Below are positions 5,891-51,144 of a stretch of 64,000 nt of DNA, piece by piece. Below the pieces are notes generated by a model. The model did not search any database. It was not told the origin of the DNA and saw only the letters and a program-made list of their open reading frames with translations. Both the position numbers and the translations under genes were made by a program. The first letter of the stretch is position 1; each line of letters begins with the position of its first letter. The stretch lies in assembly GCF_003018255.1 (NCBI RefSeq), contig NZ_CP027440.1, one strand, 5' to 3'. Source of the DNA: Escherichia coli. Its GTDB lineage: Bacteria; Pseudomonadota; Gammaproteobacteria; Enterobacterales; Enterobacteriaceae.

Positions 5891-6265
<375 letters not shown>

Positions 6266-6268
6266 TCT

Positions 6269-7396: not shown

Positions 7397-7423
7397 TGAG
7401 TGGTTCTGCAAGAGGAAATAAGC

Positions 7424-7624
7424 ATGGACTGGCTGGCTAAATATTGGTGGATTCTGGTGATTGTCTTTTTGGTAGGCGTCCTGCTGAACGTGATTAAAGA
7501 TCTCAAGCGCGTCAACCATAAGAAATTTCTCGCCAACAAGCCGGAGCTTCCCCCGCATCGTGATTTCAACGATAAGTGGGACGATGACGACGACTGGCCG
7601 AAAAAGGATCAACCGAAGAAGTAA
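7424..7624 (+). CDS. ypfN: Small membrane protein YpfN
   Basis: ORF 7400..7624; likely start at [21 protein letters not shown] (one TM helix) with an acidic C-terminus [14 protein letters not shown]; 66 aa. Confidence 0.8.
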
Positions 7625-11370: not shown

Positions 11371-11537
11371 AGATACCTCAACAATATATTCATTATAGAA
11401 ATGATCGTAGGTGGTTCAGAGGAAGATTACCACAGGAAAGCGGGATGAAATGGCGGAGGAATGAGCGTTCAATACTCATCTTATGAGAGCGGTTGTCTTG
11501 CCGTGCCAGCTGCACGGCAAGATGATGAACAGAAAAA

Positions 11538-15581: not shown

Positions 15582-15679
15582 TTACTTTGCTCCATTCCGT
15601 GCTGGCTGCGCTTGCGGCCAGCACATCTCACATCTTCTCACTGCCCTGCAACACTCGTTTCAAATTTTTTCGCTGAAGG

Positions 15680-16953: not shown

Positions 16954-18417
16954 ATGTTCAGGCAGTTGAAAAAAAACCTGGTTGCAACCCTCATTGCTGC
17001 TATGACCATTGGTCAGGTAGCCCCGGCGTTTGCCGACAGCGCAGACACCTTGCCGGATATGGGAACCTCCGCAGGAAGCACACTTTCCATTGGTCAGGAA
17101 ATGCAGATGGGCGACTATTATGTCCGCCAGCTACGCGGCAGCGCGCCGTTAATTAATGATCCGCTGTTAACGCAATACATTAATTCGCTAGGAATGCGTC
17201 TGGTTTCGCATGCCAATTCGGTTAAGACACCGTTTCATTTCTTTCTGATCAACAACGATGAAATTAACGCCTTTGCTTTCTTTGGCGGCAACGTGGTGCT
17301 GCACTCTGCCCTGTTCCGTTATTCCGATAACGAAAGTCAACTGGCTTCAGTTATGGCGCACGAAATCTCCCACGTCACCCAACGTCACCTGGCGCGAGCG
17401 ATGGAAGATCAGCAGCGCAGCGCGCCGCTGACCTGGGTCGGCGCGTTAGGTTCTATTTTACTGGCGATGGCCAGTCCGCAGGCGGGGATGGCTGCGCTGA
17501 CCGGTACACTGGCGGGAACGCGCCAGGGGATGATCAGCTTCACCCAGCAAAATGAACAGGAAGCGGACCGCATTGGTATTCAGGTGCTGCAACGCTCAGG
17601 ATTCGATCCGCAGGCGATGCCGACCTTCCTCGAAAAATTACTCGATCAGGCGCGTTACTCCTCGCGTCCGCCGGAAATTTTATTGACTCACCCGTTGCCG
17701 GAAAGTCGTCTGGCAGATGCCCGCAACCGTGCTAATCAGATGCGCCCGATGGTGGTGCAGTCGTCGGAAGATTTCTATCTGGCGAAAGCGCGCACACTGG
17801 GGATGTATAATTCCGGACGTAACCAGCTCACCAGTGATTTGCTGGATGAATGGGCGAAAGGAAACGTTCGTCAGCAACGAGCGGCGCAATATGGTCGTGC
17901 TTTACAGGCGATGGAAGCCAATAAATACGACGAGGCGCGTAAAACGCTGCAACCGTTACTGGCGGCAGAACCTGGCAACGCATGGTATCTCGATCTGGCT
18001 ACTGATATCGATCTTGGGCAAAACAAAGCCAATGAGGCGATCAATCGTCTGAAAAATGCCCGCGATTTACGCACCAATCCGGTGTTGCAGCTCAACCTGG
18101 CGAACGCTTATCTGCAAGGCGGTCAACCACAAGAAGCGGCCAATATTCTGAATCGCTACACCTTTAATAATAAAGATGACAGCAACGGCTGGGATTTGCT
18201 GGCACAGGCGGAAGCCGCGCTAAATAACCGCGATCAGGAGCTGGCTGCGCGAGCAGAAGGTTATGCGCTCGCCGGACGACTCGATCAGGCCATTTCGCTG
18301 TTGAGTAGCGCCAGTTCGCAGGTGAAATTAGGCAGCCTGCAACAAGCGCGTTACGATGCGCGCATCGACCAGTTGCGCCAGCTGCAGGAACGCTTTAAGC
18401 CTTATACCAAGATGTAA
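16954..18417 (+). CDS. bepA: Periplasmic M48 metalloprotease/chaperone BepA (YfgC)
   Basis: 487 aa; signal peptide, HEISH zinc motif, C-terminal TPR-like region. Confidence 0.9.
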
Positions 18418-33430: not shown

Positions 33431-34897
33431 TCAGGAGCCCAGACGGTAGTTCGGGGACTCTTTAGTAATGGTCACGTCGTGAACGTGGCTTTCCTGAATG
33501 CCCGCACCGCTGATACGTACAAACTCCGCTTTAGTACGCAGTTCGTCGATAGTACCACAGCCGGTCAGGCCCATACAGGAGCGCAGGCCGCCCATCTGCT
33601 GGTGAATGATCTCTTTCAGGCGACCTTTATAGGCCACGCGACCTTCGATACCTTCCGGCACCAGTTTGTCGGCAGCGTTGTCACTCTGGAAGTAACGGTC
33701 AGAAGAACCTTTGGACATCGCGCCCAGGGAACCCATACCACGGTAAGATTTGTAAGAACGGCCCTGGTAGAGTTCAATTTCACCCGGAGATTCTTCAGTA
33801 CCTGCCAGCATGGAACCCACCATTACCGCGCTTGCGCCAGCGGCGATAGCTTTGGCGATGTCGCCAGAGAAACGGATACCGCCGTCAGCAATAACAGGAA
33901 TACCGGTGCCTTCCAGGGCTTCTACTGCATCAGCAACGGCAGTGATCTGCGGAACACCGACGCCAGTCACGATACGAGTCGTACAGATAGAGCCTGGGCC
34001 GATACCCACTTTAACCGCGCTGCAACCTGCTTCTGCCAGAGCGCGGGCGCCCGCAGCTGTTGCCACATTACCGCCGATGATTTGCAGATCCGGATATTTA
34101 GCACGAGTTTCACGGATACGCTGCAGAACGCCTTCAGAGTGACCGTGAGAGGAGTCGATCAGCAGAACGTCAACGCCTGCGGCAACCAGCGCGTCGACAC
34201 GCTCTTCGTTACCAGCGCCAGCGCCAACCGCTGCACCAACACGCAGACGGCCTTGCTCGTCTTTACAGGCGTTCGGTTTACGTTCCGCTTTCTGGAAGTC
34301 TTTCACAGTGATCATGCCGATCAGGTGGAATTCGTCATCAACCACCAGCGCCTTTTCAACGCGTTTTTCGTGCATTTTTGCCAGCACCACTTCACGGGCT
34401 TCGCCTTCACGCACGGTTACCAGACGCTCTTTCGGCGTCATGTAAACGCTAACCGGTTGATTCAGATCGGTCACAAAACGCACGTCACGACCGGTGATGA
34501 TGCCGACCAGTTCGTTTTCTTCGGTAACCACCGGGTAACCCGCAAAGCCGTTACGTTCGGTCAGTTCTTTCACTTCACGCAGGGTGGTTGTCGGCAGCAC
34601 GGTCTGCGGATCAGTTACCACGCCAGATTCGTGTTTTTTCACACGGCGAACTTCTTCTGCCTGGCGTTCAATGGACATGTTTTTGTGGATAAAGCCGATA
34701 CCGCCTTCCTGAGCCAGAGCAATAGCCAGGCGCGCTTCCGTTACGGTATCCATTGCTGCGGAAAGCATAGGGATATTCAGACGAATAGTTTTCGTCAGCT
34801 GGGTGCTGAGGTCAGCAGTATTCGGCAGAACGGTAGAATGAGCAGGAACGAGGAGAACGTCGTCAAACGTCAGAGCTTCTTTAGCGATACGTAGCAT
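33431..34897 (-). CDS. guaB: IMP dehydrogenase
   Basis: ORF 33431..34966; probable start at [21 protein letters not shown] for a 488-aa product; CBS pair and catalytic IGPGSICTT loop. Confidence 0.95.
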
Positions 34898-35028
34898 GGG
34901 CAATATCTCGACCAGAGTGGTTAATAAATATTGCCGCGGCATTATACAGAGCGTAACCGATTGCATCTACCCCTTTTTGCAAAAAATGCTTGCTATCCCC
35001 GGAGGGCGGGTTACTATCGACTGAATAA

Positions 35029-36435
<1,407 letters not shown>

Positions 36436-36467
36436 ACCGGATAAGAGGCGCCAGCATCGCATCCGGC
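36436..36467. repeat. REP-like element at the xseA-proximal island boundary
   Basis: gaccggataagaggcgccagcatcgcatccggc immediately after the xseA stop codon. Confidence 0.7.
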
Positions 36468-36503
36468 AATAGCTCCCAGGCTACACCAGATCCGCCATGC
36501 TGG

Positions 36504-39500
36504 TTACTGGAAGCAGGTCACCAGACCCGGTTTATTTTTTATTAGCGTGATACTACAATCCTGCGCTCCAGTACCTTCGTCCATCCCACACTGTTGAGAG
36601 GACAAATAAGGAAAACTGGGTGAAGACGGCCATCCCAGTGAATTAAAAACAGTATGCAACAACTCTAATTCATTGTATGTCGGTGCATTTTCTATGCTGC
36701 CACACTGCCTTGCGATATCCCATTTACTGGCATCAATGATATGTGCAGAAGCCCAGTTTTCGTAGTTAATAATCGGTGAGGATACGGGATTAGCCCCGGA
36801 CGGCAATTCCGTCGTTAACAACGGTCGATGTAGCGATTTACTAGTCACCACTACCGTGTCTGCCATATGTCCCCAAAAGTGCGCCGATGAAACATTTGGG
36901 CTGGTTGGCACCGTAAAAATAGCATCCAGCGTGTCTGTCGCGGAAGCGTAATTAGCCAGAGTAACCGTCAGTGGCATTTTATAACCAGGGGTATTATCCT
37001 GGCGGAGCGTAAAACTTGCCGTCCCATCCGCGCCTGTCATGCCACTAATGGTATTACCGCTTTCACTCAGCGTAACAGCCGAACCTGATAACGGCTGAAC
37101 GACGAGATCGTCCATCGCCACTACATTGCCATACAACGTTGCCCCAGCGTTACGCGGCGATGCCTCACCACGTTTCAAAGTAAATTCAACATTCGGCACC
37201 GTATTCCCGGCGCTGTCTTTCACCGTCACGGTTACGGACATGGCTTCGCCTTTTTTCACTTTCGCCGCCTGAGTGGCTGCATCAAACGCTGTTGAGGTAA
37301 GTGTGACGCTGGAAACGGTTGAACGCGCGTTAGCCAGGCAAGGCTGAAATGATTTTGTTGAACCCGTATACAGCGTGCCATTTCTCAAATCAACCGACTG
37401 GTCTTTACCATCGGCGGATTTATCCTCTGCCCACCAGGTGTAATACGCAGGCCAGCCAGTTTCAGTGACAAACGTGTTATTCGGATAACGCGCAGACAAC
37501 GAACTTAAATCATTGAATAGTGGCTGCCTTGCTACTTCACAAGGGCTCACACTCGCATCTGATTTCTGTGTTGGGGTAAAGTACGGCCAGTCTTCATTAT
37601 TGTTATTGATCTTGCCGACGCCAGAAGTCGATGTCAGTTCACTCCACAATTTCGGGCGTTCAAATACCGCACCATTCACTGCCGTCAAGGTTGCTGGCAT
37701 ATGCCCCCAGTAGTTAGCCTTCGCAGAATCCGGGCTGGTCACTACCGTGAATATCAGGTCCTGATTAGCCGTAACCTGCGGATTTCGCGCCAATGAAGCT
37801 GTAAACGGCGTTACCAGACCGACGGTGTTATTTTGGGTAACGTTGAACGTTATCGTGCCATCACTGCCGGTGAAGCCGCTCCATGCCGACGTATTCTGGT
37901 TGAAGGAGATACGCGCCGATGTTGGGGTGACTTCATCTAAAATGAGATCATCTACGGTATTGGAGGATACAGAGATCCCTGAACGGCTTTTCGCCTGCAC
38001 GCGCTTGAGCGTAACACCTTCGCCGCCAACAGGATTACCATTGGCATCTTTGATCGTCACCACGATGGGAAGCATCTCACCTTTTTTCACAGATGACGTG
38101 GGGGTACCACCATTGCTGGCAGTTCGGCCCTCATCATAGGCAGTCGATGACAGCGTAAGGCTTGCTGGTGCCGAATGTGGCTGCGTCAGACAGAGCATTA
38201 AAGCGTATCCATTAATAGTCGTCGTCGATTGTCCCGTTTTCAAATTAATGACGCCGTAATACCACGTCAACGCGTCAGTGGTGCTCATTTCATAAGTCCA
38301 CCAATTTCCACTTCCGGCAGTTATAGGCAACCCCAAATCTGTCAGTATTGTCCCGCCTGGATGATCATTATATAGCCCCTGTAACTCATTGAGACGCGGC
38401 TGATACTCAACCGGGCAATCCGGCGTAACTTTATTGGTATAAAAAAGGTATGACCACGACTCATTATTATTACTTACCGAGGACCCCAAGGTCGCTTCTG
38501 CTGCCAGTAGCGGTCGTTTAAAGGTCACCCCCGCCCTACTGGTAAACGTGTCGGGCATATGACCCCAGTATTTTGCTTTCGGTGAGTTCGGACTGGTTAT
38601 CACAGTGAAAATAACATCCATCGTGGCACTTTTTGTGGTGTCGCGCATCAATGTTGCAGTGAGCGGAGTTGCCAGCCCATAAGTCTCGTTTTGCGTCACA
38701 TCAAAAGTCGCTTTACCATCACTTCCTGTCGTCAGAAGTGCCTGTGCCCCATTATTATAGAGTGACATGTTTACTCCGGCAGGGGTGACCGGCACGATAG
38801 TAAGATCATCATACGTAGAATCTAGCCTGTTTTTTGCACGATCCAACGCAGTCCCGCGTATGAGATTAAAGTTTGCGCCTGGCAACAGATTTCCTCCGCT
38901 ATCCCGCACAATCACCGTCATCCGGATCGCCGTACCTTTCGCCGCCGTTGCACTAGGGCGACCATCGTTGCTGGCCGTTTTCTCCGCATCCAGTGCCGTG
39001 GAGGTCATCTCTATAGAAGCTGCCACTGCATGAGGGTTTACCAGACAGGACACAAATGCCACGGTGTTTGATAATGCCCTGGAGCTTGATCCATTCGATA
39101 AATTAATAGACTGATCGTACCAGACGTTCGCGTAGGCAATTTTATCGTAAGCCCACCAGGTGTTAGTCAGCGGAAGGCCTAAATCGGTCCCTATCGCACC
39201 ATTAGGATGTTCACTGTATAACTCTTGAAATTCGCTTAATAACGGTTGATAAGGTTCGCCGCAGTCTGATTTGCTGACATCATTTTTTGCTGCCGTATTC
39301 AAAGAAAGCCATGATTCATTATTAGCCATGGTTGACTGCCCCGCTGGATGCTCGGCAGTAAGCAATGGCCGCTTAAAGGCAATTCCCGACCGGGTAGTAA
39401 ACGTTTCAGGCATATGCCCCCAGTAACTTGCCAGTGGCGTATCCGGGCTGGTTATGACGGTAAACATGACCGGTAATTTGTTGGATTCTATCGTCAGCTG

Positions 39501-42500
39501 ATACAACTGGGCGTACATATTGGTTACCAGGCCCATAGAATCATCTTGTTTTACCGTAAAGGAGGTAGTCCCGTCCGCGCCAGTCACCCCATAAAGCAGG
39601 CTTGAAGAACTATTCATCCTCGCAGAAGCGCCTGCCGCGTTAATTACCGTAATCGACTTATTTATCATCTCGGCATTTTGACGGTTCTTCGAGCCTTCAC
39701 GTCTGAGAATAAAGGGGACATTGGGCACGCTATTTCCCTGCGTATTTTTAGTCACCACGCGAATCACCGCGTCTTCGCCTTTTTTCACTTTCAACGCACT
39801 CAAGGTGTCGTCAACTTTGACAAATTGCGCCGTATCATTCGCCTCAACAATGATCTGACTGGCAACGGCGACAGGCGTGGTCCGGCAGCTCAGTAATGCA
39901 CCACCAGATGAGGGCATCTGCGTTTCATCTCCTGTCTTCAGCGAAACGACATCATACGTAAAGGTTTGAGTGAACGTATCTGCAACGGTATTCGAGATAT
40001 AGAACCTCGACACTGGCCAGCCAATAGCATCATGTAATGCGCTACTCCCCTGGTGCGCATAAATGGCCCTAAGTTCATTGTCAGTTGGAACATACTCCGC
40101 GCCACAACCATTTATCGAGGTATCGTTAGCCTGGCCCGACGGGAACGTAGACCAGGCCTCCCCCTCTTCCACCAGGGTACCGATACTGGTGGTAGCACTA
40201 TTCTCGTCCCTCAGCAAAGGCCTTCGATAAATAAGACCGTCATCGCCTGTCGCCGTTTCAGCCATATGCCCCCAGAATTTGGCTTTTGGCGAATCCGGGC
40301 TGGTAAGCACCGTAAAGACAACGGGAAGCGTCGATTTAGTGCTGCTGGAGGAATCCAACGCTGCCGTGAGTTCTGTTTTTAGCCCGGTAGTCTGGTCTTG
40401 CTTCAATGTGAAAGTGGTGATGCCATCAGCCCCCGTCACGCCATAAATAACCAGGGTCGTTGAAAGAAAATCATCTTGAGTATTTCCCCAGGCATCCGTT
40501 ACCGCCAGCGAAGCAATCGACGTCGTAGTTGACACATTGGCCCTGTTCACGCTGGTGTTTCGTTTGAGGGTAAATGCGGTATTTCCCACAGGGTTACCCT
40601 GCGCATCTTTAGTGGTCACTCGTAATACGGCTTCTTCGCCTTTTTTCGCTTTGACAACATTATTCGTACTGTCAAATTTTGTGGGGTCTGCAGCTTCAAG
40701 AACAATTTGGCTTGCCTTAACAATCGGCGTCGTCTGGCAGGTAAGCAGTTCTTTTGTGGCAGATGGAATTATCGAACTGGTGCCTGAACTGAGATTGACG
40801 GCCTTGAAGTCACGCTGTTCCAGGCTACTACTACCTGTTGTGCTGGAAAGGTAACTTGAGGCGACGGGCCAGCCCTGAACCGTTTTCATCGCATTGCCGC
40901 GGTTGGCTTCATACAATGACTCCAGCCCGGCCTGGGAGGGAACATATTCACTACCACAACCATTAGAGGCTGTGCTTATAGCCTGGGTTTGGGTAAATTG
41001 CGCCCAGTCTTCATTCTCTTCTGCAATCGCTGTTCGACCCGACGTACTGGATAACTCTTTCAACAATAATGGGCGTTTAAAGACCGTTCCATCTGCAGCC
41101 GTCACTGTTTCAGGCATATGCCCCCACATTTTCGCCTTATCGCTGTCCGGGCTGGTGACAACGGTAAAAATGGTATCGAGGGTCGCTTTTTTCGTTGTGT
41201 CTGAATAGAGCGCGACGGTCAGCGACGTTTTTGTGCCATGGGTATCCGGGCGGGTAATAGTGAGAATTTTAGTGCCATCGCTGCCGGTCATCGCGCTGTA
41301 TGCTGCGGCGGTATCATTGAGCGAAGTTTCATCCGCCAGGCCACTATTGATCACAACCGGCGCAACCAGCGCATCACCGCCACCGGCAATGTGTTTTTCG
41401 TTTGATCGGGTATAACCATCGCCACGCTTCAGCGTAAAAGGCATATCACCCAATGGATTGCCCTGAGCATCTTTTACCGTCACCTTCACCTGTAGCGTTT
41501 CGCCTTTTTTCAGCTTCGCCGCATTTGCTGCCGCGTTCCACTGCGCCGGGTCCACCACTTCCAGCGTAATGCTGCTGGCAGGATTGTTAGCCGTCGTCAG
41601 GCAACTGACATAAACCGCCGTGCTACCGCCAACGGTCCGCGCGCCATCGTTGAGGGCTATGGTGTAGTAATGCGGCACCTGATCCGCGGGCGAACTGCTC
41701 CAGTAGGGCTGACGCTGCGTTGGCCAACCGTGTACCGTTTGAACGGCGTTACCGCTGTTAGCATCATAGAGCGCGTTAAGCTGGGAACGGCGTGGGAGCA
41801 TATTGGCACCACAGCCACCTTTACTGGTGCTGGAAGTGTTGGCCTGGCTAACGCGCGACCACACTTCGTTATTTTCCGTTAATGTGCCGTCCGGGCTGGA
41901 CACTTCCGCAGCCAGCCGGGGTCGGGCAAAGGTTAATGCATCGACGGTAATCGTCTCATCCATATGACCCCACATCTGCGCGCCAACCGCATCCGGACTG
42001 GTGAGCGTAGTGAAAATCACATTGTAATTAACAGTATTGGGAATATAGGAGTTTACAGGCGCAATATTCAGCGGCGTCGCTAAGCCCACACCTTGCGGTT
42101 GCTTAATTTCCACAGTAGCAAAACCCTGCGCATCCGTAGTACCGGCATAGACTAAAGACGGTTGCGATGTTCCGTAGAGTGTGCCATTCATCTCGATTGC
42201 GCCGCGGGTTGGATCATCAAAACCTGTAGTCTGCCCCTGACGATTTTTCCCCATATCTTTAGTGATGGTGAACGCGGTATACGGCACGGGCGCATTATTC
42301 AAGGCATTAAAGGTGCGTACCGTCATGGTAATCGTTTCACCCTCTTTAGCCTGCGCTCTGCTGCTTGTGGAAACATCATGATCGGTGGTCGCAGCAATCT
42401 GGGCGACCATCTCATTGCCCGAACAAGAAAGGTAGTTTTGCTTAAAGCCGGAATAGGTGTCGATGTTGCCCGTGGCCAGGTTCACCGACGCGTGCGACGT

Positions 42501-44558
42501 CTCTTCCACCGCACTAAGATACGCTTTTTGCAACGTTGGCCAGCCATATTCGGTGCCGATGACATTGGCTGGATGTGCGGCAAACAAACTGTGCAATGAG
42601 CTTTGGCTCGGAATATGACCTAAACCACACTCAGCCTGCATACTGCTATTCTGATCAAACAGCGCCCAGTCTTCGTTATTTTCCCGCACTGCTCCCAGTT
42701 CGTTGTCGGTTTCATCCGCCAGCCGTGGGCGTTTAAAGATATTATTCGCTTCAATAATGCCTAACATATGTCCCCACATCCGCGCTTTGTCGGAATCAGG
42801 GCTGGTGATCACCGTAAAAATAACGTCTTTCTCATCCGAGGCGGTAAAATCACTGCGCATTTTCGCGGTGATGTGTGTTTTCACCCCCACGCCGCCTGGC
42901 TGGGTCAGCGTCAGAGAGGCCTCTCCGTTAGCATCAGTGATCCCTTCATAGGTATGCGCGTCAACTTTGCGAACGTTACTGCCACCATCAATTTGTACCG
43001 GATGCGTCTCCCACGCAGCGTCAGTTTGATTCTTACGGTTAACACCGTCATCCAGATGCAGCGAAAAGTAGTAGTAAGCCAGCGGCTGATCGTTGTTCTT
43101 GCTATCGGTAATCGTCAGGCGTAAAGAAGCCTCTTCCCCCACCTTTACTTTCATCGCTTTTATCGTCGAATCATAACTGCCCGGCGTCAGTACCAGCTTC
43201 GGTTCAACATCGGGCGCTTCTTTATCGACACAGCTCACAATAAACGTCGTATCGTCCGGTTTTTGCGCTTCGCTGCGGTTCGAAACATCCGCCGCATGGT
43301 GCTGCCCGCTCATCCCCGCCAGTGATGACCAGTAGTAGTTACCCTGCATCGGCCAACCAGCCACATCCTGCACTGACGTTGGCACCACCGTCGCCAGCGC
43401 ACCGAACTGACGCATTCCGGGCAAAATGTCGCAATGTTTATCCGCACCACTCCAGGTAAAGGTGGACCAGGTTTCATTGTGATCGTTAACCGTACCGTCT
43501 TCATTATCGACTTCCGCCGCCAGTTTTGGTCGACTAAAAGTGTAATCACGGGCCTTCAGCGTATCGGGCATATGACCCCACATTGTGGCCTGCGGGACAT
43601 CCGGGCTGGTGAGGACGGTAAAGATCACTGCCGTTTCACTGGTCTGAGCAATACCCGCGAGGCTCGCGACCAACGGCGTTTTTACACCAGGGGCGTTGGC
43701 CTGGGTGACCGTAACCGTGGCAACACCATTCGCATCGGTAGTACCACGATATTCCGTCGCGGTGGTGGTTAATTCGGTCGTGCCCAGTTTTACCGGCGCA
43801 GTATTGTTCACTACACCCTGGCGGTTTTCAGCATCTTTGCGTTTGATAACAAAAGGAATATTCCCCACAACATTACCGACGCAATCTTTGGTGGTGACCG
43901 TTAACGTGATACTGCCGCCAACCGTCGTTTTCGCCGCACCGGAGGATTCGTCATAGCCCGCGGCGCTGACGGAAATAAGGTCACCCTGCGCGGGCGCAAT
44001 CTTCAGCGTCACTTTCTGATCGGCGAGGGTCAGAACACTTTCATAGGGATAGCCCGTCGAGGTAAGTAGATATAACAGCGGCATGGTCTGCTGGGGGTCT
44101 GGCTGCGCCCAGGCGATCAGCGAACGCCCGGCAAGGCCCTGTGCGCAAAATGAGCGATCTGCGACTGGCTGTGGGTCCAGTAAGGTGTCCGGCGTCGCGG
44201 CATCCGCCCAAACTAAAGATACTGTCGGTGGCGTTTGGTTTTCCCAACGTGGTGTGGCAATGATATCGCCTTCTCTGTCTTGCGGGTTGGTGACGAGCAA
44301 TTTAGAGACGCTAACATCCGCGCTGAATTCACTCGGTTTAGCGGTAAACGCTACCTCATGCGTCTTTGCAGGATCCAGAAAGACACTGCCCTGGTAGACG
44401 GGTATGCTGGCACTGTCGGCGGTGGGCACGGTACCGTTAAATTCGCCGACCGTATCTGAAGAGTCTTGCCATGCAGATTCTGCCCATGCCCCCCCAGGCA
44501 GCATTGCGCTTATCAGCAATGCGCAAAACACAAGGATTTTATTCAGGGTCAGGGACAT
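36504..44558 (-). CDS. ratA: Giant repetitive surface protein, RatA-like (signal peptide plus nine ~270-aa Ig-like/lectin-like repeat units)
   Basis: 2684-aa ORF with ATG at 44556-44558 and GGAG Shine-Dalgarno; signal peptide [26 protein letters not shown]; nine units each carrying ...FTV(I/L/V)TSPD...WGHMP... and a downstream Cys pair; T/S/N/G-rich. Last gene of the sinH-sinI-ratA arrangement. Confidence 0.8.
36750..43650 (-). repeat. Nine tandem, diverged ~0.80-0.86 kb intragenic repeat units within the ratA-like gene
   Basis: The DNA motif CATATG(A/C/T)CCCCA (encoding WGHM on the minus strand) recurs at about 36865, 37698, 38557, 39411, 40263, 41115, 41962, 42766 and 43569. Confidence 0.85.
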
Positions 44559-44678
44559 GACAGAAACTCCACCGGTTGTTAAACGGACGCTTGTCGCATC
44601 AACATATTTTGCTTAATCCGGGATTAAGCAAAATATGCGGAAACAGCATTCCCTTGCGGGAATGCTGCTGAGTACGCG

Positions 44679-45656
44679 TTATTTGTGTTTGTAAATAATG
44701 TGAAGTTTGTACCCCTGTACCCCGTCGCCGTTGGTCGGGATGGTAAGAGCTTCTTTACCATCGCGCGCAGGGCCGTTAAGGTTGGTTCTGGCGTCTTCGT
44801 TGGTCGCAGGGATGACCAGATTGTTATTATCGAAGCTTGAGTTGACGATACCACCCGAGGTGCCGAGCTGTTGGCTGCTGCCAGAAAGTACCCAACGGAA
44901 GTCATAATTGGCGGTAACGTCAGCATCGGTATCCGCATCAAACTTGCCATTTTTGTTCTCATCCGAGTACAGTTTGGCCACGTAGGTTTTGCCAAGTTCG
45001 ATTGGCGTACTGCCGTTGATAAGGTTGATACTGGTACCATCAACAAAGATGGCGACTTTCAGGTTCTGGTTAACTACCGGCCCTGGCGCAACGTTGTCGC
45101 TGTCGCTTCCGCCGCCGCTGGCAGTGGAAATGTCATAAAGATGCAGCGCAGTCCCGACGTTTGGCGTACCGGTCTGCGTGGTCGGCGTAATTTCAATACC
45201 GATATAACGACCACGGTCGTCATCGGTAAGAGTGTAACTGGTCACCTTCGTTGCCAGCTCTTTCGGATCGCCCCCCTGAGCGTCCTTGTAGCTCATCCAG
45301 CGGATAGTATCGATAGTCTTTGCGTTATCGCCCAATCCCCCAAGATCCACGTCGCCTTCGGTATCACCAATTTCCCAACTTACGGTTAATTTATCACCCG
45401 AGTAAAGACGCTTGTCCGTTTCACTGCCTGTCGGGCGAGCGCCTTTTAGATCAGAAGTCAACGTTACATGGTCGGCATCTGTCGTAGCGCTTCCCCCTTC
45501 CGAATAGAGCCACGGAATGGTTCCCTGGAAAATATTGGTTTCGCCGCTGTCGACCCAGGCGCTTTCTTCCGCCAGCGCCACAGGTGCCACACAATAACCT
45601 GCCAGTGCCAGCGCCAATGCGATCCGGGTCAGACCGCGTCTTTTATCCTGCTTCAT
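44679..45656 (-). CDS. sinI: SinI-like secreted protein (signal peptide; C-terminal domain paralogous to the SinH C-terminus)
   Basis: 325 aa; ATG at 45654-45656 with AGGAGA Shine-Dalgarno; signal peptide ...ALALAGYCVAPVALA; C-terminal ~110 aa aligns with the SinH C-terminus (LVIPATN, GDGxQGY motifs). Confidence 0.7.
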   Translation of the reverse strand: MKQDKRRGLTRIALALALAGYCVAPVALAEESAWVDSGETNIFQGTIPWLYSEGGSATTDADHVTLTSDLKGARPTGSETDKRLYSGDKLTVSWEIGDTEGDVDLGGLGDNAKTIDTIRWMSYKDAQGGDPKELATKVTSYTLTDDDRGRYIGIEITPTTQTGTPNVGTALHLYDISTASGGGSDSDNVAPGPVVNQNLKVAIFVDGTSINLINGSTPIELGKTYVAKLYSDENKNGKFDADTDADVTANYDFRWVLSGSSQQLGTSGGIVNSSFDNNNLVIPATNEDARTNLNGPARDGKEALTIPTNGDGVQGYKLHIIYKHK

Positions 45657-45710
45657 TGATGCTCTCCTTAATGAACCTTCAGCGACTGGCCGACTGGCCT
45701 TACGCCAATC

Positions 45711-47888
45711 TTATTTTTTGGTATACAGCACGCGTAAACCGTATCCCTGCAAGCCATCTCCCGCTTGTGCGCCATAGGTTTGCGCTGCTTCGCGGTTAGT
45801 GGCCGGAATCACAATGTCCTCATTGGAAGAGTTCGCCTGTGCACCCACTTCACCATTGATGCTCTTGCCGGTAAATTCCCACTTGTAGTCGTACTGCGCC
45901 ATCTCTTCGTCAGTCAGTTTTTCGACCTGCTGGAAGACACCGTCTTTATTGCTGTCACGCCACAAAACAAATCGATAAGTGTTGTTGAGCGGCAGCGGTT
46001 CTTTATCTTTACCTATCAGGTTGCTGGGTTTAGCTGCCCCCACACGATAGATAAATGCATTTAGCCCACCAATTTCTGCCCCGAGGAAAGTGACATCCAC
46101 ATAGTTACTGTCGTCGTAGGGCGCAGCTTTTGCTTTCCAGCGATAGGTGCCGGGTAAGGTACTGGAGAGGGTGACAGTGCCCTTTTCTTTATCTTGTTTA
46201 GCGATAAAAACGCAGGGGTTGTCGGTCGAGCAAGGCTTGTTGGTTAACGTCACTCGTTTGTCCTGCGCGTCGTAAAGCCGCGGCGTGAGGTTATCTTCCG
46301 GCAGCGCATCGCCATTGCGGTCGGTGTTATCGCCAAAGCTGTCGGTTACATCGAGATCCATCACCACACCATCAACGCCATCTGCCTGGGCGCTGGCTTC
46401 GTGGCTGTGGTTGTTCTCTTCCGGCACGTTCGCGATGTTATTAACAATCAACTCAATTTTACGGTCCTGCTGAACGGTGATTTCCACCACACCAGAGTTC
46501 TGTCGGTTGCCCTTTTCATCTTCCAGTGCCAGACGTACTCGCCAGGTATTGAGTTTTTCTTGTTCGGCTTTGTCAGAGCTGTACTGCCAGGCGGGCAGCA
46601 CCAGGTTCCAGTGGTTATTGTTACCCTCTGTCAGGGTATTCTCTTTGATAACCGGCATAACCAGCGTGCGGGCAGCATTGTTTTTCGCCTGCCATGACGC
46701 AGCGACAATTTTGTAGTGGTGGTTGATAAGCGCGTTAATGGTCCACTTACATTTTTCCAGCCCGACCGCCGCTTCAGGCGTATCTTTAATGACACACTCG
46801 GGGTGTTCGTTGGTGGCATCCGCTTTTAACCACAGGGTGACATCAAGCGGATCTTTTTCTTTGTATTCCAGAACAATAAAGTTATTACGCTCAACAAAAT
46901 CATGACGACTGCCCATCAACGAGTGAGCCGCTTTCACTTTATCGCTATCCAATTGATCTTTTAGCGGAACGCCGAACTGATAATTAAGAGTGGCATTAAT
47001 GCTGACATCGCTGTTATCTCCGGTCCCCGCTTTATAGTCCGCCCCAACGGTTAGTAATGGCACCGGTTGATAATTCAGTCCAAGTGTTACCGCGTAGGGA
47101 TCTTTCTCCAAATTATCCGTACCAAAAAGGGCAACTTCATCGCCGTAATATTGCTCGAAGACAACTTTGCCCCCCAGTTGCGGATAAGAAGGTAACCAGG
47201 CTTCGGCGCGAATATCCCAGCCGCGCGCAGGACGCTCCTCATAAAAATCGAAATCTTCGGAGTCTTTCCAGTCAGAAAGCGGATGATAATAGTTGCCAGA
47301 GAATTTTAAATAATCAGTCCACGCTTCGCCGCCTAAACCTAAACGGCGATGTCCTCGGGTAAAATCATAATCATAAAATATATTCCCGCCCAATAACCAT
47401 TCATTAAAATTATGTCTTACCCCAAGACCAATATTCCCGATTGTACGATCTTCTTTTCGCTGCGCAGAAAATTGACTGAAATAAACAGTGGTTTGATTAT
47501 CGTACCAGGGAACAAAATAATCGATGGAACTGCCATCCAGATCGCCGCCCTGGCCAATGGAGAGGTTCGAACGGACCTTACCGTAGGGAGAGAGAGTGTC
47601 TTCAATATAAGATTGTGCGGTTGAGGTGATTTGACTTTGCAGATAGCTTCTGGCCTGAGATTCCAGCGCCTCAGGGGTCAAGTTTTCAAACCCTTGCGTG
47701 GCGGAGTTGATGATGTAATCGGCTCCGCGCTCTTTCAGCGATTTACCCTTGTTGGTTTGTTCATCCTGCTGTGCTGCCTGGCTACCTAAATCAGGTAACG
47801 ATTCGTTTTGCTTAACATTTATCTCTGGTGCCGCGAAAGCAGCACCAGAGATAAATGTTAGAATAATACAGCGTTTCCATCGCAGCAT
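45711..47888 (-). CDS. sinH: Intimin/invasin-family inverse autotransporter (SinH-like)
   Basis: ORF track starts at a TTG (47918); probable ATG start at 47886-47888 (MLRWKRCIILTFISGAAFA, signal peptide) with AGGGA Shine-Dalgarno. N-terminal region with alternating aromatic beta-strand pattern typical of the intimin/invasin beta-barrel, followed by Ig-like passenger domains. Confidence 0.8.
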   Translation of the reverse strand: MLRWKRCIILTFISGAAFAAPEINVKQNESLPDLGSQAAQQDEQTNKGKSLKERGADYIINSATQGFENLTPEALESQARSYLQSQITSTAQSYIEDTLSPYGKVRSNLSIGQGGDLDGSSIDYFVPWYDNQTTVYFSQFSAQRKEDRTIGNIGLGVRHNFNEWLLGGNIFYDYDFTRGHRRLGLGGEAWTDYLKFSGNYYHPLSDWKDSEDFDFYEERPARGWDIRAEAWLPSYPQLGGKVVFEQYYGDEVALFGTDNLEKDPYAVTLGLNYQPVPLLTVGADYKAGTGDNSDVSINATLNYQFGVPLKDQLDSDKVKAAHSLMGSRHDFVERNNFIVLEYKEKDPLDVTLWLKADATNEHPECVIKDTPEAAVGLEKCKWTINALINHHYKIVAASWQAKNNAARTLVMPVIKENTLTEGNNNHWNLVLPAWQYSSDKAEQEKLNTWRVRLALEDEKGNRQNSGVVEITVQQDRKIELIVNNIANVPEENNHSHEASAQADGVDGVVMDLDVTDSFGDNTDRNGDALPEDNLTPRLYDAQDKRVTLTNKPCSTDNPCVFIAKQDKEKGTVTLSSTLPGTYRWKAKAAPYDDSNYVDVTFLGAEIGGLNAFIYRVGAAKPSNLIGKDKEPLPLNNTYRFVLWRDSNKDGVFQQVEKLTDEEMAQYDYKWEFTGKSINGEVGAQANSSNEDIVIPATNREAAQTYGAQAGDGLQGYGLRVLYTKK

Positions 47889-48097
47889 GCACTTTCCCTG
47901 TGACAATGATACAGTCAAAAATAAGCTTTAATATTGTATCCCTGATTATTCAGAAAGGCATGTCATAAAGAATAAATATACTCTTAATTATTTAAATTAG
48001 TGATTTCACTCAATTACATTAGTTATTCCACTAATAACAGATTGTTTTACCATTCACATATTAAATATAAATGATAAAACAATATATTCACATGATA
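47889..48097 (-). promoter_or_regulatory. AT-rich upstream/promoter region of the sinH-sinI-ratA cluster
   Basis: ~210-bp spacer between the yfgJ stop and sinH start, visibly much more AT-rich than flanking coding DNA; no other promoter-sized gap before sinH. Confidence 0.5.
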
Positions 48098-48313
48098 TTA
48101 AGCAATAACAAATTCAACGCGTTTTTTAGATATTAAACCGTGCCCATGTTGGCAGAAATAATCCACAACACCACAAGCTTTTAACACTTGTAACGGCTGA
48201 TGACACTCAGGGCAAAGTGCCTGGACGGTAAAGTCTTTGTCGCAAGTTGCACAGTGGGCAGTCTCGCCATTGCGTTCGAGAGGGATTTTGCAGGTTGGAC
48301 AGTTGAGTGCCAT
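48098..48313 (-). CDS. yfgJ: Zinc-ribbon protein YfgJ
   Basis: 71 aa with paired CxxC motifs (CPTCK...CATCD...CPEC...CQHGH). Confidence 0.85.
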   Translation of the reverse strand: MALNCPTCKIPLERNGETAHCATCDKDFTVQALCPECHQPLQVLKACGVVDYFCQHGHGLISKKRVEFVIA

Positions 48314-48336
48314 AAATACTCCTCACGTGTTATTCG

Positions 48337-48366
48337 GTTTCCCTCTCCGTGTGGAAAGGGAAACCA
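48337..48366 (-). terminator. Hairpin between der and yfgJ (attenuator/terminator-like)
   Basis: ggtttccct ctccgtgtgg aaagggaaacc, a 9-bp stem. Confidence 0.5.
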
Positions 48367-48375
48367 GATAAGTGA

Positions 48376-49848
48376 TTACTTACTTTTCTTGATATGCTTC
48401 ATCAGGCGCTTACGTTTACGCATCTGGGTTGGCGTCAGGGTGTTACGCTTGTTCGCATACGGGTTTTCCCCTTCTTTGAACTGAATACGAATCGGCGATC
48501 CCATTACGTCCAGCGATTTGCGGAAGTAGTTCATCAAGTAACGCTTGTAGGAATCAGGCAGGTCTTTCACCTGGTTACCGTGAATCACCACAATCGGCGG
48601 GTTATAACCACCAGCGTGGGCATATTTCAGCTTCACACGACGACCGCGTACCAACGGCGGTTGGTGATCTTCAACAGCCATCGTCATGATGCGCGTCAGC
48701 ATAGAGGTCCCCACACGACGGGTGGAGCTGTCATACGCTTCACGTACTGATTCAAACAGATTACCAACACCACTGCCGTGCAAGGCTGAGATAAAATGCA
48801 CACGAGCAAAATCGATAAAGCCCAGACGGAAGTCCAGCGTTTCTTTCACCTGCTCTTTCACTTCCTGGCTCAGGCCATCCCACTTATTCACTACAATGAC
48901 AAGTGAGCGCCCACTATTGAGAATAAAGCCCAGCAACGAGAGATCCTGATCGGAAATACCTTCGCGGGCGTCAATCACCAACATCACCACGTTGGCATCT
49001 TCAATGGCCTGCAACGTTTTGATTACCGAGAATTTCTCTACAGCATCGGTGATTTTGCCGCGTTTACGTACGCCAGCGGTGTCAATGAGCACATACTCAC
49101 GTCCGTCGCGTTCCATTGGAATGTAGATGCTGTCACGCGTCGTGCCAGGCATGTCGTAAACAACAACGCGCTCTTCACCAAGAATACGGTTCGTGAGTGT
49201 AGACTTACCTACGTTCGGACGACCCACAATCGCCAGTTTGATCGGCAGACTTTGCGGGTCGAAGTCATCTTCCTCTTCTTCTTCGCCGTTTTCTTCTGCT
49301 TCAAATTGCGCCCAGTATTCAGCGTCTTCATCCACTTCTTCTTGTGGTGCGAGATCTTCCATCCACGGCAGCAGCACGTGCTCCAGCAGACTTAATACGC
49401 CACGACCGTGAGACGCGGCGATCGGGTAGATTTCCCCTAAACCAAGCGAGTAAAAATCAACTACCGCCTGATCAGGATCCAGCCCGTCAGTTTTGTTTGC
49501 CACCAGGAAGGTTGGCTTTTCGCGGGAGCGCAGATGTTTAGCAATAGCTTCATCCGCAGGCATCAGACCCGCGCGCGCATCGACCATAAACAGCACAACG
49601 TCCGCTTCTTCAATCGCCAGCAGCGACTGTTCCGCCATACGTGTCTCTACACCGTCTTCGGTGCCATCAATCCCGCCAGTATCAATACAAATAAACTCGC
49701 GGCCTTCAATTTCTGCACGACCGTATTTACGGTCACGAGTCAGACCTGGGAAATCCGCAACCAGCGCATCTCGTGTGCGAGTTAGACGGTTAAATAACGT
49801 GGATTTTCCTACGTTAGGGCGCCCGACAAGCGCGACCACAGGTACCAT
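48376..49848 (-). CDS. der: Ribosome-associated GTPase Der (EngA)
   Basis: ORF 48376..49887; probable start at [20 protein letters not shown]; two tandem GTPase domains (GRPNVGKS twice) plus C-terminal KH-like domain; 490 aa. Confidence 0.92.
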
Positions 49849-49965
49849 GTTTAAAGCCTCATTTTTATAAATCATCAGACAACGCACGCTATATTCGTGT
49901 CGTTGTTAAAAACAGGAAAACGGCCCCTGTCCAGGAGCCGTTTTCAAAGTGAACGACAGAGACGA

Positions 49966-51144
49966 TTAACGTGTAATAGAGTACACGGTTCCGTCTTTTG
50001 CCTGGATCAGCAGTTTGCCGTCAGCAGCAACCGGTTCAGTCTGGAAACCGGAACTATCAACTTTTTGCTGGGCAACGAAACGACCATCTTCGACGTTAAT
50101 CCAGTGCAGATAACCTTCGCTGTCACCTACCACCAGGTTGTCATTATACAGCACCGGAGAAGTCAGCAGGCGATGCAGCAGATCGCTTTGTGTCCACAGC
50201 GTAACGCCGCCATCAATGGTCAACGCCATCACCCGGTCATTTTGATCGACCAGATAGATGCGGTTGCCGTCGACGATGAAATCATTCACCGAACCCAGTT
50301 CGCGTTTCCACATAATCTGACCGCTGCGCAGATCAAGCGCCGTCAGGTTACCATTATAGGCCAGCGCGAAAACAACGCCGTTAACAACGACGGGAGTCGT
50401 GTCAACATCGCTCAGACGGTCAATTTCGGTAGAACCGGTCGCCTGGGAAATACGCTGCTGCCAAATCATCTGGCCCTGTTCCATCAGCACTGCGCTGACG
50501 CGACCATTATCGCCACCCACGACGGCCGCACCAAAAGCCGTTGCCGGCGCAGACTCGCCACGCAAAGAGAGCGAAGGCATATCGAGGTTAACTGTCCATT
50601 TGACAGCGCCGTCAGCTTCGTTCAGCGCTTGTAACTGACCGTTACTGGTGTGGATTAACACCAGACCGTCGCTGACCACCGGGCGCGAAAGTGCTTCACC
50701 CGCGACTTTAGTTTGCCATGCCACAGTACCATCGCTGGTATTCAGCGCGTAAACCTGCGCCTTTTCGGTGCCAATGTAGACATGCCCACCAGACACGGTC
50801 ACGCCGCCAGAAAGTAATGCAGGATCTTTAGAGAACCAGCCATCTTTCTCGGCCAGGTTGACAGACCAGATTTCTTTGCCGTCATCCGCATTCAGCGCTT
50901 TTACTAAACCAGCGCGGTCCGCTGCATAGACAACGTTGTCCGCCAGTGCCGGATGAAGATTGGAATAGAAGTTGCCAATGCCGCTACCAACGGAAGTGCT
51001 CCACACAGTAGTCGGCGTAAACTGGTTTTCAACGGTTGGCAATGGGGACATCTTTACCACATCTTCTTCGCTGTTAAACAGCGAACAGCCGCTTAAAAGG
51101 GTAACGGAAAGCAGTCCTGGCAGCAGTAATTTACGCAATTGCAT
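49966..51144 (-). CDS. bamB: Outer membrane protein assembly lipoprotein BamB
   Basis: 392 aa; lipobox LLSGCSL; PQQ-type beta-propeller repeats. Confidence 0.92.
   Translation of the reverse strand: MQLRKLLLPGLLSVTLLSGCSLFNSEEDVVKMSPLPTVENQFTPTTVWSTSVGSGIGNFYSNLHPALADNVVYAADRAGLVKALNADDGKEIWSVNLAEKDGWFSKDPALLSGGVTVSGGHVYIGTEKAQVYALNTSDGTVAWQTKVAGEALSRPVVSDGLVLIHTSNGQLQALNEADGAVKWTVNLDMPSLSLRGESAPATAFGAAVVGGDNGRVSAVLMEQGQMIWQQRISQATGSTEIDRLSDVDTTPVVVNGVVFALAYNGNLTALDLRSGQIMWKRELGSVNDFIVDGNRIYLVDQNDRVMALTIDGGVTLWTQSDLLHRLLTSPVLYNDNLVVGDSEGYLHWINVEDGRFVAQQKVDSSGFQTEPVAADGKLLIQAKDGTVYSITR

Follow-up and report, generated by a model that had tools for sequence, protein, structure and literature searches.

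The sinH-sinI-ratA adhesin locus between xseA and yfgJ of Escherichia coli: protein architecture, conserved RNA hairpins and probable long residence

Introduction

The junction between xseA and yfgJ is empty in Escherichia coli K-12 and holds three further genes in the strain analyzed here. What do these genes encode, do their products act together at the cell surface, and did they enter the junction or were they lost from it in K-12? An initial annotation had described them as an accessory island of the Salmonella CS54 type inserted at this site, with counterparts in extraintestinal E. coli. The locus is the already known E. coli sinH-sinI-ratA adhesin locus, which the literature on extraintestinal pathogenic E. 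coli (ExPEC) indeed describes under the names iatB and ila cluster (PMC6714894, PMC9937491, PMC12928451, PMC12525524); the versions in CFT073, UTI89, SMS-3-5 and Nissle 1917 have the same genes, gene order and xseA-yfgJ position, with no essential difference. Taken as a whole, we consider it quite probable that the segment is an intact, Nissle-type copy of this adhesin locus ('ila', iatB), with trans-export via SinH, and an old resident that was lost in K-12.

Layout and boundaries of the locus

The window, i.e., the whole 64,000-nucleotide stretch of E. coli DNA that was analyzed, contains three intact, co-oriented minus-strand genes for proteins of 725, 325 and 2684 amino acids, which fill positions 36436-48097, the 11,662 bp that separate the xseA stop codon from that of yfgJ. 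Position 36436 is the first base past the xseA stop and 48097 the last base ahead of the yfgJ stop, and the list of open reading frames (ORFs) thus confirmed both the genes and the exact limits initially proposed. The left flank, xseA (35059-36435, plus strand), was assigned from the ORF list and from the annotation in the best-matching E. coli record; it encodes the large subunit of exodeoxyribonuclease VII and is convergent with ratA, with a stop-to-stop gap of 68 nt. The right flank, yfgJ (48098-48313, minus strand), was assigned from sequence and annotation and encodes a 71-amino-acid double zinc-ribbon protein; it is co-oriented with sinH and lies directly upstream of it, with der and bamB beyond. 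The adjacency of xseA and yfgJ in K-12 was borne out by the record of the K-12-derived strain C600, where the two genes (locus positions 3060-4430 and 4427-4642) overlap by 4 nt with zero intervening sequence, so that K-12 does not carry the same three genes. A compact xseA/yfgJ junction of ~2,332-2,336 bp was likewise present in all 19 island-free genomes sampled.

Other ORFs within the segment are only antisense shadows, and none encodes an integrase or transposase. The search of positions 30000-55000 for tRNA genes returned zero, and no direct repeats were found at the boundaries, the sole direct-repeat families being the nine internal ratA modules; all three absences had been noted in the initial annotation. 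The GC content of the segment is 0.507, compared with 0.517 in the remaining window. The segment therefore shows none of the marks of a mobile or pathogenicity island that we looked for (integrase or transposase, tRNA or attachment site, flanking repeats, atypical composition). Beyond it, the window is collinear with K-12 except for a missing hyf-focB operon, and the segment is thus the sole extra content of the window, as had been claimed.

The expected REP element at one edge corresponds to a REP-like palindrome (CCGGATAAGAGGCGCCAGCATCGCATCCGGC; 36437-36467) immediately 3' of the xseA stop, within the 68-nt gap. Its arms (CCGGATAAG...GCATCCGGC, ~36437-36467) presumably represent a REP sequence, judged by likeness to the REP consensus, and its fold is unexceptional (z = -1.2). 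This same palindrome also lies 3' of xseA in JNE120442, Nissle, E69, Escherichia sp. E1V33 and a Pseudocitrobacter MAG. A defense role for the locus was considered and dropped, as PADLOC defense-system models gave zero matches.

Architecture of the three proteins

The gene sinH (also iatB; 45711-47888, minus strand) encodes a 725-amino-acid inverse autotransporter (type Ve). Its ORF (45711-47918) opens at a TTG codon, and the ATG at 47888 yields the 725-residue protein, which matches the curated NCBIfam equivalog NF033423 over its full length (residues 1-725 on model positions 1-730 of 730; 1486 bits, cut-off 999). SinH is composed of a signal peptide, a beta-barrel (residues ~63-343) and a C-terminal passenger (~345-725). 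The barrel contains the Pfam domain IAT_beta (63-336, E = 2e-108) and is homologous to the solved barrels of invasin (PDB 4E1T, E = 2e-73) and intimin (4E1S, E = 7e-65), to which residues 101-343 align. The Pfam search of SinH found no LysM domain, and the short, divergent passenger went unrecognized. Judged by these matches, SinH is an inverse autotransporter with an N-terminal barrel and a C-terminal passenger and a member of the curated family. It would be exported by the Sec pathway, insert its barrel into the outer membrane and show its C-terminal Ig-like passenger at the cell surface. Surface display and adhesin activity have been published for SinH orthologues (PMC6714894, PMC9937491), with the passenger reported to promote adhesion, aggregation and biofilm formation and to contribute to bladder colonization.

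The start of sinI (44679-45656, minus strand) lies 54 nt past sinH. Its product is a 325-amino-acid secreted partner protein that scores 333 bits (cut-off 165) against NF040711, the SinI family of autotransporter-associated proteins, and lacks the Pfam domain IAT_beta. In SinI, the signal peptide is followed by an N-terminal module like that of RatA, by a beta-sandwich domain in the middle and by a C-terminal domain like that of SinH; in a BLASTP comparison, SinI residues 211-325 are 37% identical to the last SinH domain (623-725; E = 2e-13). An AF2 model of SinI (pLDDT 78) contains two beta-sandwich domains. A PDB sequence search with SinI found no relative, and the structures that Foldseek retrieved from PDB with the model were no more than weakly similar Ig/FnIII folds of a generic kind (best E = 3.7e-3). 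The signal peptide contains an invariant A-G-Y-C motif, and we considered SinI as a lipoprotein; this was rejected, since a tyrosine at position -1 is at odds with a lipobox.

The ratA-like gene (36504-44558, minus strand) encodes a 2684-amino-acid protein that matches the equivalog NF011844 from end to end (residues 1-2684 on model positions 1-2683; 5883 bits, cut-off 3870), and all three proteins therefore exceed curated NCBIfam cut-offs, in agreement with the proposed SinH/SinI/RatA-like homology. A Sec signal peptide is followed by a ~190-residue N-terminal module common with SinI and by nine tandem modules, each a BIg21 and an InvE_AD (adhesion) domain, seen in Pfam as an alternation of PF05688 and PF05689. 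The module motif occurs in nine copies in the ratA DNA, 804-858 nt apart. Pairwise amino acid identity among sampled modules is roughly 26-41%, some of the bins compared covering two or three modules; this divergence is too high for the modules to be visible as DNA tandem repeats, and TRF reported only two short repeats. The modules match the Ig-like and adhesion domain pair of Yersinia invasin E (PDB 5N40, 'putative invasin'; E = 6e-29). The window differs from intimin and invasin in that these adhesion modules are carried by a separate RatA protein and not by the autotransporter.

The likeness to Salmonella CS54 held in part. Genome data, from which the CS54 layout was taken, show that the S. 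enterica island (shdA-ratB-ratA-sinI-sinH) occupies the same slot by yfgJ and has the same sinH-sinI-rat core, and it shares with the window the N-terminal module (in SinI, RatA and RatB) and a double hairpin between sinI and ratA. In contrast to the five-gene CS54 island, ratB and shdA are absent from the window, which has a three-gene version as found in S. bongori. The large protein has 2684 residues and nine modules, compared with 1865 residues in Salmonella RatA, and remains below the equivalog cut-offs of both Salmonella RatA (NF011843; 2012 bits, cut-off 3700) and RatB (NF011842; 2204 bits, cut-off 4079). By these scores, it is related to both proteins but is the equivalog of neither.

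RNA hairpins within the locus

Folding and covariation identified a double RNA hairpin between sinI and ratA (44602-44669, minus strand). Hairpin 1 (~44644-44667) resembles a terminator in that its GC-rich stem runs into a U-tract, and hairpin 2 (44603-44637) pairs perfectly over 17 bp, with UUUGCUUA/UAAGCAAA as its conserved core. The double hairpin folds with an energy of -52.1 kcal/mol (z = -7.1), is unique within the window and is present in all 14 aligned loci and in both Salmonella species, with 94.8% of pair cells paired. Its thirteen compensatory pairs were reached by none of 500 shuffles, and slid controls gave at most three. An Rfam scan of positions 34000-50000 at E values up to 0.1 returned no matches, for the double hairpin or otherwise. 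Hairpin 2 was also considered as a DNA operator palindrome ahead of ratA; G-U wobbles in several loci make RNA pairing the more probable reading.

A second structure, formed by an inverted repeat (I1) that is 95% complementary, lies inside the sinH ORF, in the signal-peptide codons (47813-47860, minus strand; +29 to +76). All Escherichia alleles are predicted to form this 22-bp hairpin, and the changes between them include compensatory and G-U ones; in other genera, the inner ~14 bp of the hairpin are retained. Paired cells make up 84.8% of its pair cells, compared with 36-49% in slid controls; its 17 double-change cells were reached by 0 of 500 shuffles and its 8 compensatory pairs by 29 of 500. 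The hairpin in the signal-peptide codons of sinH and the terminator and long hairpin ahead of ratA are RNA structures that had previously been undescribed.

Do SinI and the RatA-like protein leave the cell through SinH?

Both SinI and the RatA-like protein have Sec signal peptides, but they lack a barrel, an anchor or any other secretion signal. A comparable arrangement exists in the ZirTSU system of Salmonella (translocator ZirT, secreted partners ZirS and ZirU), where a barrel gene is likewise followed by barrel-less, signal peptide-bearing Ig-like proteins that resemble the passenger of the transporter. Heinz et al (2016) drew this analogy, noted the gene layout and proposed a ZirT-like role in trans-export for SinH (PMC4943183). 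Following this published hypothesis, SinI and the RatA-like protein, which are built of domains of the invasin-passenger type, would most probably depend on SinH for export or for docking at the surface, as modeled for ZirT, ZirS and ZirU. The likeness to ZirTSU is incomplete: SinI is only weakly similar to the ZirU family (residues 69-210, E = 1e-7; 32 bits, cut-off 100), SinH-dependent export is hypothetical, and RatA is about ten times the size of ZirS or ZirU.

The shared modules point to elements that such a pathway might use. HHalign matched SinI residues 31-110 to the N-terminus of RatA (24-102) with a probability of 93% (E = 2.9e-7). Searching 1.84 billion proteins with a profile of this module yielded just 73 matches; the stronger ones have the module immediately behind the signal peptide, and nine of nine checked hits belong to the SinI or Rat families, which suggests that the module occurs almost only in these two families. 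Its motif variants in SinI and RatA co-vary per locus. The module (SinI 30-110, RatA 27-105) has classes with the patterns 'AW..EF.GT.P' and 'LK.G.WQ..TG.I.GT.P'. We infer that the N-terminal module common to SinI and RatA and the C-terminal domain common to SinI and SinH are candidate recognition or docking elements. In a bolder version, SinH, SinI and RatA would form one surface machine in which SinI serves as adaptor, the ~80-residue N-terminal module acts as the export or docking signal for the barrel, and the two RNA structures set protein amounts post-transcriptionally. This version is tentative and rather doubtful; if true, it would represent a genuine two-partner branch of type Ve secretion.

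The main alternative is that SinH is a self-contained classical adhesin and that SinI and RatA function independently of it, either as periplasmic Ig-like proteins or through another export route, e.g., a type II system. We give this alternative a considerable chance, though one short of even. In K-12, IatB alone was sufficient for surface exposure and biofilm formation, and the downstream gene was dispensable (PMC6714894). In addition, SinH was found to be surface-localized with its passenger accessible to antibodies, which were protective, and a mutant was less fit in urinary tract infection (UTI) (PMC9937491). Biofilm formation by IatB alone and the surface-exposed passenger fit a self-exporting adhesin and argue against trans-export, since a self-displayed passenger sits awkwardly with a barrel that also passes a 2684-residue substrate. 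The terminator-like hairpin, which splits ratA from sinH-sinI, suggests partly separate expression, and the common N-terminal module could reflect mere shared domain descent rather than a signal. Independence is harder to reconcile with the strict linkage of the three genes over at least six genera despite extreme divergence, with the way SinI joins a RatA-type N-terminal module to a SinH-type C-terminal domain, and with the invasin-type extracellular adhesion modules of RatA, which has no export device of its own.

Beyond what is published on the locus, the SinI/Rat N-terminal module, the covarying sinI-ratA double hairpin and the conserved 22-bp sinH hairpin are small additions. They offer handles on the export of barrel-less partners of inverse autotransporters and on the occurrence of IatB transcript without protein.

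Ancestry and allele classes

The locus looks like an old resident of the yfgJ/xseA slot and not like a recent mobile insertion. The order yfgJ-sinH-sinI-rat-xseA was found in E. coli, E. whittamii, E. albertii and two further Escherichia species, and also in Pseudocitrobacter (three species), Superficieibacter (two species) and S. bongori. In Citrobacter, both flanks were confirmed in one of two genomes and the other showed the three-gene module only; in S. enterica, the yfgJ side of the locus was confirmed. Occupancy of the slot in at least five genera, native GC content and saturation of synonymous sites together make the K-12 state better read as a loss, and the term 'inserted', used in the initial annotation, probably has the wrong polarity for E. 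coli. The locus would have been inherited within Escherichia and its relatives, kept as deeply diverged allele classes and lost in a lineage that includes K-12. The case for long residence is weakened by outgroups: in Klebsiella aerogenes, Enterobacter mori and Cronobacter condimenti, the slot is filled by a protealysin-emfourin pair instead, which marks it as a replacement hotspot; no remnants of this pair were found in the sinH-bearing loci or in the window.

Reviews term the locus 'horizontally acquired', probably from CS54 (PMC12525524, PMC12928451), and the segment could accordingly be a recent pathogenicity island that ExPEC lineages received from Salmonella CS54 at an xseA/yfgJ junction that had been empty before. 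Such an origin would account for the patchy distribution in E. coli, where a presence/absence survey found sinH in 1,740 of 5,426 complete genomes, and for the association with phylogroups B2, D, F and G (PMC9937491). Allele classes that deviate from the species phylogeny also speak for it. We nevertheless regard a recent acquisition as improbable. In addition to lacking an integrase, tRNA, direct repeats and a deviating GC content, the locus has the same chromosomal position in further Escherichia species, E. albertii and E. whittamii among them, and in no fewer than four other genera. Its proteins are also too distant from those of Salmonella: SinH is only about 74% identical to its Salmonella counterpart (PMC6714894), SinI is 43-46% identical to Salmonella SinI, and RatA falls short of both Salmonella equivalogs. 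Finally, dS between E. coli allele classes is 0.75-2.2, compared with 0.014 in bamB, and synonymous sites in the segment are saturated. The discordance between allele classes and species tree likely reflects some inter-genus exchange by homologous recombination. If the locus is an old, polymorphic surface-antigen locus, its distribution would result from loss in phylogroups such as A and B1 rather than from gain of a mobile island, absence in K-12-type strains would be the derived state, and the allele diversity would represent ancient lineages.

The best match to the window is strain JNE120442, with 98.9% DNA identity over 14 kb; the top E. coli matches carry the RefSeq annotations sinH, SinI family and adhesion domain protein. 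The window proteins share 97-98% identity with their Nissle 1917 counterparts, which places them in the Nissle 1917-type allele class and not in the other large E. coli class (strains S3 and WP2). The latter probably corresponds to the ST131/phylogroup-F type described in PMC9937491. Between the two classes, SinI (68% amino acid identity) and RatA (66%) diverge far more than SinH (90%), and the S3-type E. coli allele shows 85% identity with the Pseudocitrobacter vendiensis one, a case of the discordance with the species tree. Since SinH is a leading ExPEC vaccine antigen, the allele class of a strain is useful to know.

Divergence is raised in the flanking xseA, yfgJ and der as well. Near the segment, xseA is mosaic and highly polymorphic, its C-terminus exists in two ancient types, and identity with K-12 drops to 59% over the final 150 nt. 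The N-terminal half of yfgJ is hypervariable, and the window YfgJ is 65% identical to K-12 YfgJ, while the adjacent Der is 99.8% identical. We also looked for a source of the K-12-type yfgJ allele; beyond E. coli, the most similar sequences reached 70-75% identity, and none was a close relative.

Expression of the locus

Published data indicate that sinH and sinI are co-transcribed and that deletion of ila genes attenuates UTI (PMC12525524, PMC12928451), and that LeuO activates the iatB promoter (PMC6714894). The locus would normally be silent, with an AT-rich, LeuO-responsive promoter region, and the conserved terminator-like hairpin past sinI probably holds ratA transcription below the level of sinH-sinI.

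That the locus is a silenced, decaying relic without present function in this strain is very improbable. In its favor, IatB protein was undetectable in wild-type cultures in every laboratory condition tried, despite LeuO-raised transcript (PMC6714894), features of low expression are present (a GC content of 25% upstream of sinH, and strong hairpins both early in the coding region and ahead of ratA), and sinH is interrupted in one E. coli genome (E69). Against it, no ORF of the three is broken and each aligns with its family profile over the whole length, dN/dS values of 0.05-0.19 (0.14-0.19 in ratA) indicate purifying selection on all three genes, and induction in human UTI as well as phenotypes of mutants in mice have been published (PMC9937491, PMC12928451).

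Scans of positions 36300-48500 for promoter and terminator consensus sequences gave sites no commoner than in shuffled sequence and missed the real hairpins, and the promoter scan found nothing above chance upstream of sinH. This AT-rich putative regulatory region (47889-48097, minus strand), delineated by composition and a 14-locus alignment, includes the sequence TACAAT (47933-47938), which resembles a -10 element, a stretch that the alignment shows to be conserved between genera (47970-47989) and a 22-bp tandem repeat at 47992-48039.

Gene content and limits of the sinH-sinI-ratA locus

In the window, the stop codons of xseA (35059–36435, plus strand; left flank) and yfgJ (48098–48313, minus strand, followed by der at 48376–49848 and bamB) enclose a segment of 11,662 bp, and the limits drawn for the island in the initial annotation are exact, lying directly past the one stop codon and directly before the other. 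The ORF map contains the three co-oriented genes described there, all on the minus strand: a ratA-like gene (36504–44558; 2684 aa), sinI (44679–45656; 325 aa) and sinH (45711–47888; 725 aa counted from the ATG). As had also been stated, the island lacks an integrase, with no ORFs in the map besides these three, a tRNA (negative tRNA search) and a direct-repeat boundary (no repeats at its edges in the repeat analysis), and a REP-like palindrome lies directly 3′ of the xseA stop. Rfam families gave no match. The record of C600, a K-12 derivative, shows a 4-nt overlap of xseA and yfgJ with nothing in between, in line with the adjacency described for K-12, and the junction is equally compact in 19/19 island-free genomes sampled. 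The feature is real, and the original observation is borne out in every detail.

The island had been called the only clearly accessory content, and the remaining window is indeed collinear with K-12, except that hyfABCDEFGHIJR-focB (~13.8 kb, bcp to yfgO in K-12) is missing at 15636–15671. In the alignment to the K-12 locus, window positions 15635 and 15672 correspond to positions 3540 and 17349, respectively; the absence of hyf-focB is a second presence/absence difference from K-12 in the window.

All three proteins belong to the proposed SinH, SinI and RatA families by NCBI curated full-length equivalog or subfamily cut-offs (SinH, 1486 bits versus 999; SinI, 333 versus 165; RatA-like protein, 5883 versus 3870). 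For the large protein, the scores against the Salmonella RatA and RatB models lie below the cut-offs of both, and it is thus classed as a “RatA-like” equivalog and not as either of these. The locus is already known and was identified correctly; the present analysis adds a probable polarity of loss, the three-gene layout with a “RatA-like” equivalog and an allele class, together with three small unreported features, namely a shared N-terminal module and two conserved RNA structures.

SinH carries the inverse-autotransporter barrel (Pfam IAT_beta, residues 63–336), a homologue of the invasin and intimin barrels of known structure. In RatA, a signal peptide and an N-terminal region of ~190 aa precede nine modules of BIg21 and InvE adhesion domains, which match the invasin structure 5N40. 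SinI has no relative among solved structures; its AlphaFold model (pLDDT 78) comprises two beta-sandwich domains, with only generic Ig/FnIII fold matches. At their C-termini, SinI and SinH end in homologous domains, as reported earlier for Salmonella. The SinI signal peptide contains a segment A-G-Y-C-x-x-P (residues 19–25; window ~45582–45602). Across 95 SinI sequences from several genera (alignments A1/A3), its A, G, C and P never vary, and its Y is kept in at least 90%. Such conservation is unusual in the core of a signal peptide; the segment does not fit a canonical lipobox.

Probable inheritance and loss

The island had been described as inserted between xseA and yfgJ. We surveyed its taxonomic range by scanning one genome per species for SinH and then locating the flanks by tblastn. 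The order bamB-der-yfgJ-sinH-sinI-rat-xseA-guaB was found in E. coli, E. whittamii, E. albertii, Escherichia sp. E1V33 and Escherichia sp. MOD1-EC7003, and also in three Pseudocitrobacter species, two Superficieibacter species and Citrobacter, where one of the two genomes (R56) showed the three-gene module only, with no flank matches. Since this order is kept across genera and the GC content is native (0.507 in the island versus 0.517 in its surroundings), we read the polarity as loss in K-12-type strains rather than insertion. On this parsimonious reading, the locus was probably inherited in E. coli and then lost in a lineage that includes K-12.

Two observations qualify the inheritance-then-loss reading. 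First, the locus alleles are at odds with the species tree, and the island of E. coli S3 type is 85% identical to that of P. vendiensis across 13 kb, with flanks at 80–82%; alleles have therefore probably been exchanged through homologous recombination. Second, the yfgJ-xseA slot holds different cargo in outgroups. In Klebsiella aerogenes (L033), Enterobacter mori (L034) and Cronobacter condimenti (L035), it contains an M4 protealysin-type protease and its emfourin inhibitor (about 6200–7600 in each locus), with the emfourin gene overlapping the yfgJ stop by 4 nt, like xseA in K-12. Remnants of this pair were searched for in the sinH-bearing loci and none were found. The slot appears to be a hotspot of cargo replacement.

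The likeness in position and gene set to Salmonella holds for S. bongori, whose SinI-encoding contigs have the sinH-sinI-rat layout in the same slot; S. enterica has an added ratB, whereas the window has the three-gene layout. Between the rat gene and xseA, the S. bongori locus L030 contains a 92-aa ORF (17876–18154) that looks like part of a REP-associated (IS200-like) transposase.

Distribution and allele classes

With at least 80% of the query covered, sinH is present in 1,740 of 5,426 complete E. coli genomes (32%), close to the published iatB prevalence of 35% (PMC6714894). Amino acid identities to Nissle 1917 (SinH 97.7%, SinI 97.2%, RatA 97.9%) place the window allele in the Nissle 1917-type class, and the closest overall match is strain JNE120442 (98.9% DNA identity across 14 kb). 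Strains S3 and WP2 (sinH DNA identity 86.7% and 82.7%) stand for the other large E. coli class, with amino acid identities to the window of 90% for SinH, 68% for SinI and only 66% for RatA; Der is 99.8–100% identical in the same comparison.

All three genes are under purifying selection, as indicated by dN/dS values of 0.05–0.19. Between the allele classes, dS reaches 0.75–2.2 (saturated) versus 0.014 in bamB, and the flanking genes xseA and der likewise show elevated values (about 0.2–0.3, with der at about 0.2). xseA is mosaic, with two ancient types of XseA C-terminus, and YfgJ is hypervariable in its N-terminal half, the window YfgJ being 65% identical to that of K-12 at the amino acid level. 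These features are typical of an old surface-antigen locus that recombines while its flanks hitch-hike, and the divergence and mosaicism of the flanks look like hitch-hiking around an old polymorphism. Compared with JNE120442, identity is 87–96% in xseA, yet 99% in the island and 100% in guaB.

In E. coli E69 (L014), sinH is split by a ~770-bp insertion (~10666–11435). Three short contigs from assemblies of unrelated organisms, two in a MAG labelled Collinsella sp. (L008 and L023) and one in Rhizobium wenxiniae HU50 (L019), encode proteins 96–99% identical to those of the window: L008 and L019 have SinH, and L023 has the SinH C-terminus, SinI and RatA. They are almost certainly E. coli contamination of public assemblies.

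Function and a module shared by SinI and RatA

IatB/SinH is displayed on the surface and promotes biofilm formation; the iatB promoter is LeuO-responsive and silent under culture conditions, with the protein still undetectable (PMC6714894). Surface localization of SinH, protection of mice by anti-SinH antibodies, sinH induction in human UTI and attenuation of the mutant have been reported (PMC9937491), as have co-transcription of sinH and sinI and lowered invasion and urinary-tract ascent upon ila deletion (PMC12525524, PMC12928451).

SinI and RatA each carry a Sec signal peptide and adhesion domains of extracellular type but lack an export device. In a proposal by Heinz et al., both proteins leave the cell through SinH, as ZirS/ZirU do through ZirT (PMC4943183); by this analogy, SinH would be a ZirT-like exporter and SinI and RatA its putative partners. 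We found a module common to SinI and RatA at the N-terminus of the mature proteins (profile–profile probability 93%, E = 2.9e-7), in which W, G, P and D..GD are invariant and which Salmonella RatA and RatB also carry. Its profile matched only 73 proteins among 1.84 billion representatives, at residues ~25–112 in the stronger matches, and 9/9 matches checked were SinI or Rat family members. Two sequence variants of the module co-vary between SinI and RatA within a locus. The shared module may lend added support to the hypothesis of SinH-dependent export, and the combination of a RatA-type N-terminal module with a SinH-type C-terminal domain would suit SinI as a hypothetical adaptor. Common descent of the domains explains the same shared-module data.

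Conserved RNA structures

The gap between sinI and ratA contains a double hairpin (44602–44669, minus strand; fold z = −7.1) without an Rfam match. It is kept in 14/14 aligned loci and both Salmonella species, and ranges over Escherichia, Salmonella, Citrobacter, Pseudocitrobacter and Superficieibacter. Across the alignment, 94.8% of pair cells are paired and 13 pairs are compensatory, a number reached in 0/500 shuffles (slid controls, at most 3). Hairpin 1 combines a GC-rich stem with a U-tract and is therefore terminator-like, consistent with the published co-transcription of sinH and sinI. Hairpin 2 has a perfect 17-bp stem with the conserved core UUUGCUUA/UAAGCAAA.

A near-perfect 22-bp hairpin lies inside sinH, in the signal-peptide codons (47813–47860, minus strand; +29 to +76). 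All Escherichia alleles retain it, with wobble as well as compensatory changes, and other genera share its inner stem. In total, 84.8% of pair cells are paired versus 36–49% in slid controls, a fraction inflated because the structure was taken from the window sequence; 17 double-change cells (0/500 shuffles) and 8 compensatory pairs (29/500 shuffles) give it moderate statistical support. The hairpin could limit translation and may have a part in the finding by Goh et al. of transcript without protein. Upstream of sinH, the AT-rich region holds 2.2 tandem copies of the 22-bp unit TTACATTAGTGATTCCACTAA (47992–48039), which is kept only partly across alleles and may be a regulator binding site.
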